DNA of 64,000 nucleotides from Candidatus Obscuribacteraceae bacterium. Lineage in GTDB: Bacteria; Cyanobacteriota; Vampirovibrionia; Obscuribacterales; Obscuribacteraceae. The notes under the pieces are model-generated. The model had not been told where the DNA came from and searched no databases. It saw only the letters and a program-made list of their open reading frames with translations. The stretch covers positions 320,001-384,000 of the forward strand of contig JBGAHS010000005.1 in NCBI GenBank assembly GCA_044226015.1, written 5' to 3'. Below, one piece after another: positions 50,117 to 64,000 of the stretch (position 1 is its first letter; each line of letters opens with the position of its first letter). The translations under genes and the position numbers were made by a program.

Positions 50117-53100
50117 TTATCTTTGTGGTTCGAGATTATGCACGTTGCGATGTGGCACAAGGTCGATCTTGCTGATGTAAGTTCGCAGATTGTGTCCTTG
50201 CTGTTTCAATGCTGTCATTGAAGGCATAAGGTTCTGAGTCAAGCTCTTGCCGAAATTGACCAGGTGCATCAAAGGTGGTGCGGACGGAACAGGTAGAAGC
50301 TCTGGATGCGCTGTTTCTGCAGCAATAGGAGTTGCTTCGCCGCCGACTATTGTGCTTAAGAAGTTGTTTAATAGCTCGCGATCAATCTCTGTTGTACCAA
50401 TGATTGTCACCATATTTTCTGCTTTAGCATCGGCTTTCTTTGCCAGCAAGAATTCATTTACTTCAGAAGGAAGTGGCAACTCGATTTCCTGGCGGCTTCG
50501 CAGCTCGACAATTCTCTTTCCTTCCTCTACGTGTTCTGAAATGCGCAATGCATTGATGTCTGCGATCAGCCAAGCCACATCAGAATTGTGGAAGTGTTTT
50601 TCAGCAATGTCCACGAGCGTATCATTTGGTTGAACCATGTATGTTGGACGCTTGAACAGGCTGGTGATTTGAGCTGTGCTCACAGTTCCATCTGCGTTAG
50701 TGTAGGTGACGCTCAATTCGGCGTTTTCTGGTTTGTCAGATGCATCATCAGCATCCCCTTCTGGCTTTGCTTTTGCAACTGCTGCTGAGGCTATGGCTAC
50801 TGCTAGTGCGATTTCTACTCCTGTCAGATATCTCTGCTCTGAGTTCGTTAGAGATTTTTGCAATTGTGAGAGTTCGAGAACACTGAATTCACCGCTCTTC
50901 TCAGCCGCAGGAACTACCCTTCCGGTGATAGGGTCGAAACGGGAAGCGGGGGGTTCATGTCGCCCTGTAGGGTCTGCTCTTCCTGTCAAATTAGCTTCAG
51001 TCCTGCTAGTTACAGGGTCTATTCTTCCAGCTGTAGATTCGCTTCTGCCACTGCGGGCGATGCCCAGCTGTTCAGCTATGCTTTGACTTATTGCGGCATT
51101 TGCTGTGATGCGCACATTTCCAATCTGACTATTTGGAGTAAGAGCAGATTGATTAGCCGCGTTCGATCCTGGTGAAATCACTTTCCCGCTAGCATCGATA
51201 TTCAGCGTTTTGCCCATCAATCCTTGTGGATCAAAAACACCTTTATTTCCGTTCAATGCATTTGCCAGTGCAGCTGGAATCTCGGTGTTACCTTGTACCA
51301 TTTGCGTTTTCATCGCTGATAACGCTGCATCAGCCCCAGCAGTAGTACCAGTTTTTAGTGCTGCAGCTGCCGTTGCATCGAGTCCTGCTTGCATGACTGA
51401 TTTTACTGCGCTCTGTCCAAATATCTGCTCTCCTGCGGTGGTGTTGGCAGCTGTCCTTGCTGTCAACGCTGAGAGTGAAACAGGTCCAGTAAGTTCAATG
51501 ACATTTGCTGTAGTTGTAAGCTTTGATGCGTTGCGGTCACCACCTGCAATACCAATTTCAGATCCTGAGGCTTGAACTTTTACCGCTGAGGCAATTTGCT
51601 CGAGAGAGGAAGCGCCGCCCTGTTGAATTGATGCCCTGGCTAAGGTGCCGGCTGATTCAATGGATTGAGCCTGTTTGTTTACAGTTGCCTCTGCTGCTGT
51701 TGCAGCAGCTGCAGCCACGACTTGTCGTACTGGTTCTGGACCAGCTTCAGCTTTCCTGGATTCCACTGCATTCGAGTTTGCGATTTGCTCTGTTTTTGCT
51801 GCTAGTTCTTGCTTAGTTGCAGCATCGGTTTTGTTCACTGGTTCGAGCGTGCGAGATTGCTCACTAAGGTGTTCGTTTTTGTAATTATTCTCGCTTCTCG
51901 AGGGCTCGGGTGCTTTAAAATCATTGCTTCTATTTTCTGGAGCACCTTTGTTGTCCGAACTGCGACCTTCGGGTCTAGAGTCACTGGTCCGCTCAGAATT
52001 TTGATTTGTTCCGCCTTTGCTACCTTCTGTTCGCGCATCATTATTGTTGCGCGCTTCTGAGCCACCGCCACCACTCTTAGCGTCGTTATTTCGCGGTCCG
52101 CCATCGGAGGATCCTTTGTCTGAGGTCTTGAAATTGTCGAGATTTCCCTTGCTACTTTCAATGCTACCTTTACTTCCTTCGGTAGATTTGCCGTTATCGC
52201 TTGTCCCGTTTCCTTGATTGCCTTTCATTGATTCAAGATTTCCGGCAGGCGCTTTGCCACCATCTGCGGTAGCCTTCTCTGCTTGGTTATTCTCGTTAGC
52301 TAATGTTTTTGTGGCTGCTGGAGCCACGTTCTCAGTTCCACGTTGTTGATTGTTAGTATTCTCGGTGTTGCTAGGACCTTTCAAGGCTTCCAATAGCGAT
52401 TTTGAATCTCGTGGTAATTCAGGTGAATTCTTGTCGTAGACGCAAGTACGATCGACACTGCTTGTTTTGTCTAGCGAACCACTGCCTGCTGAACCAACTC
52501 TTTCAGCATTCTCTCTGCTTGTGTCACGTGAAAAACCGCTGGATGCTGAGCTGTTCTTGTCTGTCGATAAGTTTCTGTCGGCTGTTCCCAGAGGTATTCT
52601 CTGATTCTCAAGCCGTTCGGGGTTGAACATAATATCGTTCATCGACCCACGATTTGGGGATAAATTACCAGTTCCACTGGAGCCATCATTGCTGCGTGTT
52701 TCCTTCAATGCAGGGGATGGTGAGCCTGATGAGCCAGTTTCGCGAGTCAACGAAGGTGACGTCAGTTGGAAATTCTGATTGGCAATGGGCTCTTTATTGA
52801 ACATGATATTGTTCATGTCTGTGGCTCTATCATTTTTCTGGCCGACAACATTGCTGCCTGCTTCAGGAGCCTGAGCGGTCTTAGGATGCTCATCCTTAAA
52901 GTCAAGTCGGCTGGGCAAAAATGAATTTGTCGTAGCGTCGAGAGTGTAAGGCTTGGGGCTTGTCTCAGAATTTCGAGCTACGTTGGTATTATTTCGCTTC
53001 GCTTCTTCCGTATCACAAGCGCCGGCTATAAACCCGCCCTTGTTCAGCTCCGCCAGGATTCCTCCGGCTTGGGGTTTGTTTTGCGCCACTTCCAGAGGAA

Positions 53101-53956
53101 CAGTATGTGTCTTAAGTTCAACGATGGTGGGATGTTTGTCGCCACCAGCAAATTCTGAGGCGGGACGAAAGGTTGTGGGACCCTCATAACCAGGAGCTGG
53201 TCCACTAATTGAAATGGTTTTGACCAGTTTTGGTTGAATCTGGTCGCCTGAATTTGCCCGCATATCCATATTTCGAGAATCTAGAGGCACAGGAGAAACA
53301 GCTGTCTCTACCGTTTTAAAGTTGTTCGGCAAATTTGCTGGTTGAAATGTATTGTTTGGGGCTAGGTCAGAGGCTGGTGCTGCCTGTAGGAATGGTTTTG
53401 GCGCGACATCGAGAGGCGGTTTAAGTTCCGAACTTTCGTTGCCTTTAGAGGTAGCATTCATGATCTGCACTATAGCGGGTCTATAGAAACCGCCAGAGCC
53501 CAGGGGAGAATAAGTGAACGAGTCAAAATTGCTTGCCAGGTTTGGTTTCGACGGGTCGAGCTTTGAGTCAGGTCCGTCGGGTTTCTGTGGCTTTTCTGGT
53601 CGGAATGCGTCGGACGCGAGTGGCGACGAAGATTTAAAGGTTTCGTTCGGTCTCTTACTGGTATGTTCGCCGGATTTGGACTCACCTGCTTCTCCAGGTG
53701 CTGAGCCGTCCTTCGCATCCTTGCCGTGATTATCTTTTTCAAGGTGGAAGATGCTCGGCGCCTCGATCATGTCACTGACAGCGCTAGCAATTTTCTTGAA
53801 GGTGCCAGAACGTGACATCTCTTCAAGCGCCTGGCTCGCAAGGTCATAAAGTTTCGGAGGTGTGGCAGCTGCTGATTCGGGGGCATCTTTGTGCTCCACG
53901 TGCTCGTCAGCTTTCACCGGCTTTTCGCGCTCAGCCGACTTGTGCCCCTCGACCAT
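50117..53956 (-). CDS. Giant low-complexity protein with C-terminal LysM-like domain
   Basis: RPTYMVQPNDTLVDIAEKHF..SDVAWLIADIN...QEIELP; start uncertain (53956 or 54034). Confidence 0.75.
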   Translation of the reverse strand: MVEGHKSAEREKPVKADEHVEHKDAPESAAATPPKLYDLASQALEEMSRSGTFKKIASAVSDMIEAPSIFHLEKDNHGKDAKDGSAPGEAGESKSGEHTSKRPNETFKSSSPLASDAFRPEKPQKPDGPDSKLDPSKPNLASNFDSFTYSPLGSGGFYRPAIVQIMNATSKGNESSELKPPLDVAPKPFLQAAPASDLAPNNTFQPANLPNNFKTVETAVSPVPLDSRNMDMRANSGDQIQPKLVKTISISGPAPGYEGPTTFRPASEFAGGDKHPTIVELKTHTVPLEVAQNKPQAGGILAELNKGGFIAGACDTEEAKRNNTNVARNSETSPKPYTLDATTNSFLPSRLDFKDEHPKTAQAPEAGSNVVGQKNDRATDMNNIMFNKEPIANQNFQLTSPSLTRETGSSGSPSPALKETRSNDGSSGTGNLSPNRGSMNDIMFNPERLENQRIPLGTADRNLSTDKNSSASSGFSRDTSRENAERVGSAGSGSLDKTSSVDRTCVYDKNSPELPRDSKSLLEALKGPSNTENTNNQQRGTENVAPAATKTLANENNQAEKATADGGKAPAGNLESMKGNQGNGTSDNGKSTEGSKGSIESSKGNLDNFKTSDKGSSDGGPRNNDAKSGGGGSEARNNNDARTEGSKGGTNQNSERTSDSRPEGRSSDNKGAPENRSNDFKAPEPSRSENNYKNEHLSEQSRTLEPVNKTDAATKQELAAKTEQIANSNAVESRKAEAGPEPVRQVVAAAAATAAEATVNKQAQSIESAGTLARASIQQGGASSLEQIASAVKVQASGSEIGIAGGDRNASKLTTTANVIELTGPVSLSALTARTAANTTAGEQIFGQSAVKSVMQAGLDATAAAALKTGTTAGADAALSAMKTQMVQGNTEIPAALANALNGNKGVFDPQGLMGKTLNIDASGKVISPGSNAANQSALTPNSQIGNVRITANAAISQSIAEQLGIARSGRSESTAGRIDPVTSRTEANLTGRADPTGRHEPPASRFDPITGRVVPAAEKSGEFSVLELSQLQKSLTNSEQRYLTGVEIALAVAIASAAVAKAKPEGDADDASDKPENAELSVTYTNADGTVSTAQITSLFKRPTYMVQPNDTLVDIAEKHFHNSDVAWLIADINALRISEHVEEGKRIVELRSRQEIELPLPSEVNEFLLAKKADAKAENMVTIIGTTEIDRELLNNFLSTIVGGEATPIAAETAHPELLPVPSAPPLMHLVNFGKSLTQNLMPSMTALKQQGHNLRTYISKIDLVPHRNVHNLEPQR

Positions 53957-54251
53957 GATGATGACCCCGGAAAATTGAACTACAGACCCTATGTACCCGA
54001 AACTTTGACTTGTGAACCCCGAGCCCCTACGCACAGGCTCTACGGGGCAGATTAAAGGTAATTCATATCCTGCTTGAAGTCAAGAGGTGACACCGCAAAA
54101 ACTTCGTTTAGTGACTGTATATTCGTGCAGATATGCGAAGGGATGGCTAAGTGCCACCCCTTCGGCTAAAGTTTCGCTCTTCCCACATGTTTCCTGATCT
54201 GTCCACCTGTGCGTTCAGTGCGGACTGTGTGACCAGTGCGACGGGTACTGT

Positions 54252-60955: not shown

Positions 60956-61315
60956 TTAATTAACGCCAATCAATTCTACGTCGAACACGAGAGTCGCATT
61001 AGGAGGAATAGCTCCTGGGAAACCCTTTGGTCCATAGCCGAGTTCTGGCGGAATAACCAGGGTTCTCTTTCCGCCAACCTTCATGGTAGCGACGCCTTCG
61101 TCCCAGCCTCTGATTACCTGCTGAACACCAAGAACAAATTGGAATGGTTGTCCACGGTCGACAGAGCTATCAAACTTTGTGCCATCGGTCAGCCAGCCGG
61201 TGTAGTGAACTGTCACTTTTTGTTTGGCGTTAGGAGTTGCGCCGTCTCCCACTTGCTTGTCTTCGTACTGAAGTCCAGAAGGAGTTGACTTCAAATTTGC
61301 CTGGTTTACGTTCAT
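60956..61315 (-). CDS. FKBP-type peptidyl-prolyl isomerase
   Basis: [43 protein letters not shown]. Confidence 0.97.
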
Positions 61316-61438
61316 GGAGTTAACCTCAAAAGTTGAGGCTCAAGAATAGCAGAAACATATATACGACGGATTTTTATTCGCAAAAAATGTAGGTTTAGCG
61401 ATACACTCGTAATAGCGTCTCCTCATGGTTGAAACGGC

Positions 61439-62479
61439 ATGGATCCGTTGGTCGTAAATACGCGGCAGGGCTTGTATTGCCCGAAAGGTAACTTTTACAT
61501 AGACCCGTGGCGTGCAGTCGACAGGGCTCTGATAACACATGCGCACTCAGATCATGCCAGAAGCGGTAGCAAGAGTTATTTAACTGCAGCGACCGGAGAG
61601 CATGTGTTGCGACAGCGCTTGAGTAAAAAAGCTGTGATAGAAACCGTAGAGTATGGACGGTCAGTCACCATATCTGGTGTTAAGGTTTCTTTCCATTCGG
61701 CAGGACATGTTCTGGGTTCTGCGCAAATTAGATTGGAACACAAAGGGCAGGTTTGGGTCGTTTCAGGTGATTACAAAACAGTGCCCGATTCAACTTGTGA
61801 TGCCTTCGAGCCGGTCAAGTGTCATACCTTTATTACTGAATCTACCTTTGGTCTTCCGATTTATCGTTGGCCATCACCCAGTGAAGTTTCTCGAAGCATT
61901 AATGGCTGGTGGCAGCGCAACCAGGAAAAAGGTCTTGCAAGTGTGCTAATGGGTTATTCATTTGGAAAGGCACAAAGACTTTTGTCGCTTTTGGATCCAT
62001 CCTTGGGTTCTATTTTTGTTCATCCAAAAATCGATTTGATGAACAGAGCTTATATCAATACCGGTATCAAGTTGCATTCCTATCGCAACATTGAAGAGAC
62101 CATGGCTGGCACCAGATTTGCTTCTTCTCTGATTATCACTCCGCCAGGGGCAGATGATGATGTTTGGAGAAGCCGAGTCTATGATGACTACGCAGTGGGC
62201 GTAGCATCAGGTTGGACGCGTGTGCGAAATCGGCAAGCTTACAATTACCATGATGAGTCTTTTGTACTTTCTGATCATGCCGATTGGGATGAATTACTTT
62301 CTGTCATCCGAGAGACCGAGGCCGAGCAGATTATAGTCACGCATGGATTTGTTGACCCATTATTGAAACATTTGAATGGGCGAGGAATTAAAGCAAAATC
62401 CTTCAAAACCAAATTCAATGGTGAAGATAAGCTTGATGAACTCTCTTCTCCCGAAAAGCAAGAGCTGGCACCCGTATGA
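61439..62479 (+). CDS. Ligase-associated DNA damage response exonuclease (MBL/beta-CASP-like)
   Basis: THAHSDHA, AGHVLGSAQ, SGDYK, TESTFGLP, GKAQR, ASGW, LSDHADW, VTHG all intact. Confidence 0.92.
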   Translation: MDPLVVNTRQGLYCPKGNFYIDPWRAVDRALITHAHSDHARSGSKSYLTAATGEHVLRQRLSKKAVIETVEYGRSVTISGVKVSFHSAGHVLGSAQIRLEHKGQVWVVSGDYKTVPDSTCDAFEPVKCHTFITESTFGLPIYRWPSPSEVSRSINGWWQRNQEKGLASVLMGYSFGKAQRLLSLLDPSLGSIFVHPKIDLMNRAYINTGIKLHSYRNIEETMAGTRFASSLIITPPGADDDVWRSRVYDDYAVGVASGWTRVRNRQAYNYHDESFVLSDHADWDELLSVIRETEAEQIIVTHGFVDPLLKHLNGRGIKAKSFKTKFNGEDKLDELSSPEKQELAPV

Positions 62480-64000
62480 AAGCGTTTTCCGATCTCATAT
62501 TCAGTTTGGAACGAGCAGCAGCGAGTCTTGCAACTCGAGTTGAGCTCTGCCAGCAGTATTTCAGTTCAACAAATCGAGCAGCGACCGCTGCAGCTATTCG
62601 CATTTTGCTTGCTCATGAGACAAAGGCTGTATTGAGTTCGGCTCAGGCACGTGAGCTAGCCTGCAAATTCGCGGAGATTGATGCTTGGCTATACGATGAG
62701 TCTTACCGTTCTGTTTCCGATCATGCTGAAACTCTTGCGCTTATAGTGCCGCGTGCAGAACTTCCCGGCACTCTTAGTTTGTGCGATTGCCTGGAGATTC
62801 TGGAGAATTTGAAAGACTCCGCTTGCTCAAGCGCAAAGGCAGAGGACATTTTGAAGGACGCTTGGAATCGGCTATCTGAGCAGGAGAGAATCGTTTTCAA
62901 TAAGATGTTGTTGGGCAGGCTCAACATAAGTGGAACTCGAGTGCTGCTGATTTCTGCTCTCTCCAAAATCTTCGGAGTGTCACATCTAGACGTTGCGTGC
63001 AGATTAGAGTCTCCATTTCTATTCGAAATGTCTGGAATCGATGAGTTGATGAATCATTCGTTTGCAGGCGAAGAAGACATTCATCCGTTCACATTTTGCC
63101 AGGTAAAAGAAGTTTGTTCTGAGCTGGACTTATCTTGTTTGGATTATGACAATCTTGTCGCCGAGTGGAGCTGGAAGGGCATTCGCGCACAATTAATTAA
63201 GCGCAATGGGAAAGTCACATTGTGGTCTTCCGAGTTTGACAATTTAAGCCAATTCTTTCCAGAACTCATTTCGGAGAGCGCTGGGCTTGCTGATGGCACT
63301 GTGATTGAAGGTGTAATCGTTCCATATAAGGATGCTGATGTATTGCCTAAATCAATGCTCTCAGTGAGGCTAAAAAAGAAAGTCCCGACAAGGCAACTGC
63401 TCCAGGAGTCACCAGTTGCATTTATGGCTTACGATCTTCTTGAAGAAGAAGGGCAAAGCCTGTTAAGCCACTCTTTGCAGATGCGTAAACAAAAACTTCT
63501 TGGAGTTTTGAGCAACAAGCGAAATATAAGTTCTGAAGAAGAGTACCAACAGCTTTCTTTGTTTGCTCCCTGCAAAATTCAGCTAAGTAGCAAAATAAAA
63601 GCCTCGCCTTCTTTATCAATTGCAAATGAGAGTGAGCTGAGGAATCTTTTAGCAGATGTGCGGTTGATGAAGGCTGGCGGTCTTATTATGAAAGACCACG
63701 CTGCACCATATACAGTGAGCGAGGGTCAAGCAGTCTGGTTGTCTCTTAGACCTGAGCCGATTTTTCTTAAAGCTGTTCTTGTAGCTGCTCAGGCTGATGA
63801 GAGGCGACGAAACTTTTTTTCGGATTATACTCTTGCCGTCTGGCGGAATGAAGAACTCGTTTCAGTCGTTAGAACCACTGCAAATTTGAGTGATGAGGAA
63901 ATGTGCAGGGTTGATAATTTTGTTCAGCAAAATGTTATTGGAAGGTTTGGGCCAGTCTTGACGGTGAAGCCTCATCTCGTATTCGAGTTAAGTTGTGATG
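62476..64000 (+). CDS. ATP-dependent DNA ligase homologue, 3'-truncated by window, apparently catalytically inactive
   Basis: My translation is open from ATG 62476 (ATGA overlap) to window end; WLYDESY..V.D.AETLAL, ERIVFNK, AYDLLE, DYTLAVW, RFGPV..V.P.LVFE retained; motif I reads EWSWKG. Confidence 0.9.
   Translation, partial: MKAFSDLIFSLERAAASLATRVELCQQYFSSTNRAATAAAIRILLAHETKAVLSSAQARELACKFAEIDAWLYDESYRSVSDHAETLALIVPRAELPGTLSLCDCLEILENLKDSACSSAKAEDILKDAWNRLSEQERIVFNKMLLGRLNISGTRVLLISALSKIFGVSHLDVACRLESPFLFEMSGIDELMNHSFAGEEDIHPFTFCQVKEVCSELDLSCLDYDNLVAEWSWKGIRAQLIKRNGKVTLWSSEFDNLSQFFPELISESAGLADGTVIEGVIVPYKDADVLPKSMLSVRLKKKVPTRQLLQESPVAFMAYDLLEEEGQSLLSHSLQMRKQKLLGVLSNKRNISSEEEYQQLSLFAPCKIQLSSKIKASPSLSIANESELRNLLADVRLMKAGGLIMKDHAAPYTVSEGQAVWLSLRPEPIFLKAVLVAAQADERRRNFFSDYTLAVWRNEELVSVVRTTANLSDEEMCRVDNFVQQNVIGRFGPVLTVKPHLVFELSCD

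Follow-up and report, generated by a model that had tools for sequence, protein, structure and literature searches.

A catalytically degenerate LigB-type ligase beside an intact β-CASP nuclease in Obscuribacterales: a candidate adaptor to the sliding clamp

The window, i.e. the whole stretch of 64,000 nucleotides analysed here, ends with a nuclease gene and a LigB-type DNA ligase gene whose product has lost eight of ten catalytic residues and kept two. Missing are the lysine that becomes adenylated and the majority of the residues that bind metal and phosphate. As the motif I lysine and the metal ligands are needed for catalysis, this pseudo-LigB is predicted to be without ligase activity. We give an even chance to the reading, drawn from sequence, that it is a non-catalytic adaptor, one that would bind the nuclease and, through a QLxLF motif, link it to the beta sliding clamp. 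That the ligase body serves the nuclease is in our opinion quite probable, because the common denominator of the cases described below is a dead ligase beside a live nuclease. The features of the locus are the following (window coordinates):

60956..61315, minus strand: divergent FKBP gene, used as synteny marker
61439..62479, plus strand: ligase-associated MBL/beta-CASP nuclease, 346 aa (TIGR04122), metal-ligand motifs intact
62476..62479, plus strand: ATGA, in which the nuclease stop and the ligase start overlap, from the sequence
62476..64000, continuing to 64131 past the window, plus strand: pseudo-LigB, 551 aa, with DNA-binding, nucleotidyltransferase and OB domains
63163..63180, plus strand: motif I, EWSWKG (K232S, D234K) versus EWKWDG in the paralogue
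63223..63231, plus strand: motif Ia, WSS (R252S) versus WSR in the paralogue
63304..63315, plus strand: motif III, IEGV (D278E, E280V); IDGEI in the paralogue, IEGVI in the window
63328..63348, plus strand: KDADVLP loop, conserved in the clade, with F292, the presumed nick-aligning Phe, changed to Lys just after the loop
63550..63573, plus strand: clade-specific insert QLSLFAPC, aa 359-366; QLSLF (63550-63564) matches the beta-clamp consensus
63676..63693, plus strand: motif IV, GGLIMK (E401G; K406 kept) versus EGLMLK in the paralogue
63736..63750, plus strand: motif V, WLSLR (K423S, K425R) versus WWKWK in the paralogue
63943..63957, plus strand: RFGPV hairpin in the OB domain; nearly all of the examined dead LigBs retain it

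The original prediction had described a ligase frame open for more than 500 codons and an ATGA overlap with the nuclease stop. Both are present, and in the whole genome the gene is not broken just beyond the window, since the frame of 551 codons reaches a normal stop at 64131, which is 131 nt past the window end. The overlap also occurs in the genomes G234, G184, G108 and G216 and as TGATG in G230, and read as sequence it indicates translational coupling of nuclease and ligase. Downstream of the ligase a convergent unrelated gene is followed by ferrochelatase, and the FKBP gene is probably not part of the nuclease-ligase system. A second contig from a different study and a different year spans the whole stretch with five differences, none of them in the motifs; this contig is near-identical to the window DNA and may be a source of it. 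Sequencing error as the cause of the motif losses was ruled out by this covering contig.

Some additional observations concern the neighbourhood of the pair. Just past the window the minus strand (L001:8134-8829) encodes a protein of 231 aa that begins like a signal peptide and matches no Pfam family; it is 50-60% conserved and adjoins hemH in all nine syntenic loci. Upstream of the FKBP gene the sequence AGAATAGCAGA (window 61344-61354) is conserved in five loci, and its minus strand resembles an extended -10 promoter of FKBP. A search for sigma-70 sites found none, and box patterns together with a palindrome scan revealed no SOS-box-like site common to the upstream regions of lexA, recA, umuD and the two nuclease genes. 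Further away in the window, positions 50117-54034 encode a 1305-aa low-complexity protein adjoining a Ser/Thr kinase gene, and its C-terminal segment is presumably LysM-like.

The register of the motif losses is fixed by an intact paralogue on contig C4 of the same genome (G000), and against this paralogue the altered readings of motifs I, Ia, III, IV and V in the original prediction proved correct throughout. In the part of the ligase beyond the window RFPR has become NRPR. The further claim that the losses are focused on catalytic residues stands only in part: the catalytic losses are real, but presumed DNA-contact residues are lost too. With the 508 aa inside the window the ligase scores 257.7 bits against TIGR04120, below the cut-off of 400; PF04675 and PF01068 are matched, and PF04679 is unlisted with OB strands present in the model. 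Databases annotate degenerate LigBs simply as DNA ligase. Adenylation on the shifted Lys234 was considered as a conserved feature and rejected, as this lysine is found in one of 16 degenerate proteins.

The nuclease passes TIGR04122 with 429 bits (cut-off 325) and, in agreement with what had been noted at first, keeps all metal ligands: D22, H34/H36/D38/H39, H90, D111, E134, D279/H280 and H302 are invariant in 93 homologues. Its nearest solved relatives are Ysh1/CPSF73 and SNM1A, and the accessible text of PMC7470946 and PMC10140301 describes the TIGR04122 family as not yet characterized.

A search for LigB gave matches in 71 of 301 genomes of the class and in 68 of 104 genomes of the family, and a subset of these matching genomes was inspected at the level of the locus. 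The gene order FKBP-nuclease-ligase-X-hemH was also found in G230, G108, G216, G204, G234, G184, G288 and G306. Among the syntenic ligases those of G234 and G184 are intact, the motif I lysine is lost (to N or R) in G230, G108, G216, G288 and G306, and the ligase of G204 keeps KWDG with the motif Ia arginine and parts of motifs V and VI lost. The closest orthologue of the window ligase is P0002 (58%). With a profile of residues 272-407, 20 proteins stood apart from the remaining matches by a gap in score (156 vs 125 bits), and together with the proteins of G108, G216 and G204 they make up a clade of 23; in 16 of them only 1-7 of the ten catalytic residues are kept, and the remaining seven keep all ten. 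Five further degenerate members of the clade came from a search of representatives. In the ligase tree the degenerate group has one origin (support 100; 93 without the trait columns), and the support of the clade is 99 after removal of the insert columns. The RpoB tree, from which G288 and G120 were left out for want of a complete RpoB, places the intact G234/G184 inside the dead group (99) and G306 outside, and this topology implies at least two losses. A second RpoB-like frame, apart from the canonical rpoB, lies at G000:C11:705006-706718, and such frames of about 1270-1370 aa exceed the rpoB cut-off in most genomes of the family (noted in all 20 genomes looked at).

Five proteins of 901-1022 aa are natural fusions of nuclease and pseudo-ligase, and because they form one clade they go back to one event. 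In the linkers of L091 (G306) and P0226 there are DLPLF and QLAL, sequences reminiscent of a second clamp motif. The coupling to the nuclease that had been postulated for this pair is thus borne out by the translational coupling, by the five fusions and by an equal pairing in an unrelated phylum, which is described below.

Slow neutral decay of a redundant gene would be compatible with the evolutionary rates: on a fixed tree the terminal branches of degenerate ligases are about 2-3 times as long as those of the nucleases (1.25 vs 0.58 in G000), with a ratio of 1.2-1.3 in G288 and G306, and the terminal branches of intact ligases are shorter than those of their nucleases (0.04-0.08 vs 0.11-0.13). 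Strain differences in the window gene are also not mostly silent, as the residue is changed in three of four codons in two near-identical contigs and in five of 11 listed codons of a more distant contig, and an intact LigB paralogue is present in G000 and G230. However, we found no stops or frameshifts in any examined degenerate member of the Obscuribacterales clade, and synonymous sites are saturated. Pairs of degenerate orthologues show pS of 0.76-0.82 and pN of 0.31-0.51 with open frames, and G288 and G306, which have the losses and the fusion in common, show a pN of 0.31 and a pS of 0.77. Because pairwise dS is saturated within Obscuribacterales, dN/dS is not computable for the window branch. 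In a neutral simulation of the window gene the frame stayed open in 2 of 400 copies at 0.1 substitutions per site and in none of 400 at 0.2. Moreover, insert and core are invariant, a trio of dead ligases from Terriglobia has a dN/dS of about 0.23, and a second LigB match is absent in G108, G216, G204 and G288, whose assemblies are 86-95% complete. Decay is therefore barely credible and already largely refuted: the constraint on the degenerate ligases is relaxed, not absent. The initial preference for repurposing over decay gains from the open frames, the saturated synonymous sites, the simulation and the accumulation of 16 degenerate proteins of 23 at one locus.

The question of an active paralogue elsewhere in the genome is answered by contig C4, which carries a second, intact nuclease-ligase pair (51% and 34% identical). 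Judged by reading the ORFs, two more ligases are encoded in the genome, one LigD-like and the other a small ATP-dependent ligase. The LigB operon set consists of the nuclease TIGR04122, LigB TIGR04120, an Lhr-core helicase TIGR04121 and the metallophosphoesterase (MPE) TIGR04123, as given in the available part of PMC7470946. The helicase and the phosphoesterase had been expected as operon partners, an expectation that did not hold for this genome: neither was found downstream of the pair, and neither exceeded the cut-offs genome-wide. The best TIGR04121 match is a 1496-aa Lhr below the cut-off, and TIGR04123 is listed in none of seven genus members, in none of two genomes in g32 and in 37 of 104 family genomes. 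As far as PMC7470946 and PMC10140301 are accessible, the LigB operon and the fusions of Opitutus and the Dry Valley share the families, the gene order, the coupling and the fusions with our locus. Unlike the operon, the locus lacks Lhr-core and MPE over cut-off and has gained the QLxLF insert, and while the DV-1-1-Lig fusion is active (PMC10140301, accessible part), the ligase here appears catalytically dead. The pseudo-LigB descends from LigB, yet it lacks the catalytic and operon hallmarks of the family.

AlphaFold returned a complete ligase fold for the pseudo-LigB (pLDDT 91.5, pTM 0.86), built on an alignment of mostly active enzymes, and a fold search with the model matched archaeal ligases and human LIG1. 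It was suggested originally that the protein is a nick-binding scaffold; in this model it would close around nicked DNA despite its dead active site and bring the nuclease to the nick. This would be in line with the three domains kept, with the resemblance of the model to DNA-bound LIG1 conformers (TM 0.64-0.65, which reflects the alignment and the training set), and with R298, which is kept in all 16 degenerate proteins and is presumably the equivalent of LIG1 R641, so that some DNA contact may remain via this residue; R444 and R526 are kept in the window protein. An engineered-inactive LigIV that still supports repair offers a precedent (PMC9638927, in the part available). However, the window protein has lost G152, F292, R416, G441, G470 and F524, and Lys or Arg stands in place of both presumed nick-aligning Phe residues. 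Over the 16 degenerate proteins the catalytic sites are kept at a rate of 0.29, the presumed DNA-contact sites at 0.35, the sites of the adenosine pocket at 0.67 and seven positions of the insert at 1.00; the site classes were picked by us, the fold-core list was chosen after viewing conservation, and the equivalences to LIG1 residues are presumed ones. The 11 presumed contact positions are fully kept in the seven intact proteins. Many of the lost sites are conserved in ligases as distant as the archaeal ones, including OB-domain motifs common to these enzymes, and we take others to be equivalents of LIG1 F635, F872 and R738. Roles of these three LIG1 residues at the nick are described in PMC11418127 (accessible part). 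As loss is about equally frequent at presumed DNA-contact sites and at catalytic sites, the nick scaffold is weakened and we consider it improbable.

The adenosine pocket could alternatively sense ATP/AMP or 5'-adenylated DNA ends and direct the nuclease to abortive ligation products. The window protein retains all four pocket residues (E230, R237, Y319 and K406) and their retention as a class is comparatively high, but none is invariant (13, 11, 7 and 12 of 16, respectively) and a structural role may account for their conservation, which makes such a sensor highly unlikely.

In the adaptor reading the decisive element is the insert. It makes the clade ligases about 10 residues longer than their sisters and ends in QLxLF[AS]PC in all clade members, intact or dead; the insert is also present in all five of the further degenerate members. 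QLxLF is present in none of 186 other LigBs and in 23 of 23 clade proteins, the latter count being partly circular as the profile that yielded 20 of these proteins included the insert; among orthologues from whole-protein searches the motif was found in ten of ten. The insert is the best-conserved 8-residue segment of the degenerate set, and the beta-clamp-binding consensus is QL[S/D]LF (PMC6511837, in the accessible text). In the same genome the UmuC-type polymerase carries QLQLF, the commonest variant of the clade, directly after its IMS_C domain. The chance level is given by 23 QLxLF in 4152 long ORFs of the genome, 20 of them annotated and four of these DNA enzymes; most of the annotated ones are unrelated to DNA metabolism. 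A degenerate DNA pattern of the insert had 22 matches in JGI metagenomes, none of them in a ligase.

This evidence has to be weighed against the possibility that the nuclease strictly depends on the dead ligase for its folding or activation and that the insert is a packing helix, without involvement of the clamp. AlphaFold sets QLSLF within a confident helix (354-363, pLDDT about 83-88). Clamp motifs are usually extended, and because of this modelled helix the insert may be structural rather than a clamp motif. Also kept are the core of the fold and the (R/K)FGP hairpin, a candidate structural or partner surface, and dead LigBs recur elsewhere without QLxLF. On its own, the nuclease portion of a natural fusion proved insoluble, which is a weak argument as the full fusion was also poorly soluble (PMC10140301, part available). 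On the other hand, the insert is an exact match to the clamp consensus with Q, L, L and F invariant around one free position (S, Q, K or M), sister ligases mostly have small or polar residues at the places of L362/F363, and clamp-like QMxLF pentamers are found in inserts of other active LigBs. Altogether, a pure folding partner seems to us not very likely.

Other QLxLF and clamp-related observations were made along the way. The UvrD/AddA-type helicase-nuclease L118 (G000:C11:899615-903214) ends with QLSLFPL, likely a clamp motif, and QLxLF is also present in the SNF2-type helicase L121 and in MutS2 L113. The QMxLF of the active LigBs L036-L038 (genus g6), P0254 and P0316 belongs to an insert within the DNA-binding domain, close to the QKSFF position of the Thermococcus ligase, and may be a clamp motif that was gained separately. 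This genome has one DnaN, located at G000:C6:817473-818663; a dnaN match is missing in four of eight sampled family genomes (G002, G009, G027 and G051; 89-91% complete), probably due to assembly gaps at the origin.

For the clamp adaptor we propose the following course of events. The starting point would have been an active LigB, encoded at the FKBP-nuclease-ligase-X-hemH locus of a lineage that lacked the Lhr-core and MPE partners, and this enzyme would have gained the clamp motif while still active, as the seven intact members carrying it suggest. Catalysis and intrinsic nick gripping could then have become dispensable, with sealing by LigA or other ATP ligases, and fold, nuclease partnership and clamp motif would have been kept after the loss of catalysis. 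The nuclease would reach DNA through clamps left at replication or repair sites and not by nick recognition of the ligase; it is likely that clamp tethering replaced nick recognition in this lineage. If true, a ligase was turned into a clamp-to-nuclease adaptor, an ImuB-like solution on a ligase fold.

Artemis belongs to the beta-CASP nuclease family. Human LigIV-Artemis is a comparable pair of an ATP-dependent ligase bound to such a nuclease (PDB titles 3w1b/3w1g), but LigIV is naturally active and was inactivated by engineering (PMC9638927, accessible part), whereas the inactivity here is natural, fixed and under selection. ImuB is, in the accessible text of PMC10421592 and PMC6511836, a dead DNA-repair enzyme that carries a beta-clamp motif and serves its active partner as a hub. 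Its partner DnaE2 is a polymerase and not a nuclease, and ImuB has a Y-family polymerase fold with clamp binding shown, whereas here the fold is that of a ligase and the clamp link is a motif match; we would regard the parallel as a functional analogy and not as membership. MutL also has a clamp motif inside a structured domain tied to nuclease action, there on a surface loop of the nuclease itself (PMC6511837, part available), here on the partner and modelled as a helix. In the literature searched, most subscription papers and supplements aside, no description of a natural, conserved DNA pseudo-ligase or pseudo-LigB was found.

Dead LigBs are not restricted to this lineage. Among 61 full-length proteins of 145 new representatives, 30 keep at most seven of ten catalytic residues, 25 keep all ten and 13 miss the motif I lysine, counts which are no frequencies as the query favours dead LigBs. 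Leaving aside three truncated or frameshifted-looking proteins and the five of the Obscuribacterales clade, about 22 degenerate LigBs remain, all without QLxLF. In the class of a Terriglobia MAG, LigB was matched in 10 of 301 genomes, three dead and seven active, and each of the three dead ones (L181:4961-7650, L184 and L185) lies directly behind a nuclease with intact motifs. Their pairwise dN/dS is 0.21-0.25, with one sequence compared from an internal Met. These Terriglobia proteins arose independently of the Obscuribacterales ones, and the conserved LigB pseudo-enzyme arose more than once. A C-terminal tail ending in [NG]LFD is present in all three and in none of the seven active relatives; as a clamp peptide this tail, which has no Gln, is only suggestive. 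As the 22 lack QLxLF and the Terriglobia tails lack Gln, clamp tethering is not the general reason for a dead LigB. We therefore put forward only tentatively, at somewhat less than even chance, that bacterial LigB has a second, non-catalytic job as carrier of the ligase-associated beta-CASP nuclease, one of such importance that catalysis was lost repeatedly across phyla, giving rise to natural DNA pseudo-ligases, with clamp-docking peptides added in at least two lineages. The LigB operon is widespread, and its pathway and nuclease are called uncharacterized in the accessible parts of the reviews PMC7470946 and PMC10140301. Natural dead LigBs reveal which features are selected once sealing is gone, and they suggest that the essential activity is that of the nuclease, which the ligase body accompanies as a partner. 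Many of the degenerate representatives sit on long branches near active LigBs named from Bacteroidota. P0398, P0470, P0060, P0371, P0424, P0458 and others outside Obscuribacterales are degenerate proteins of about 520-530 aa annotated as DNA ligase, and some of the degenerate LigBs outside this order sit in clusters of 13-24 members.
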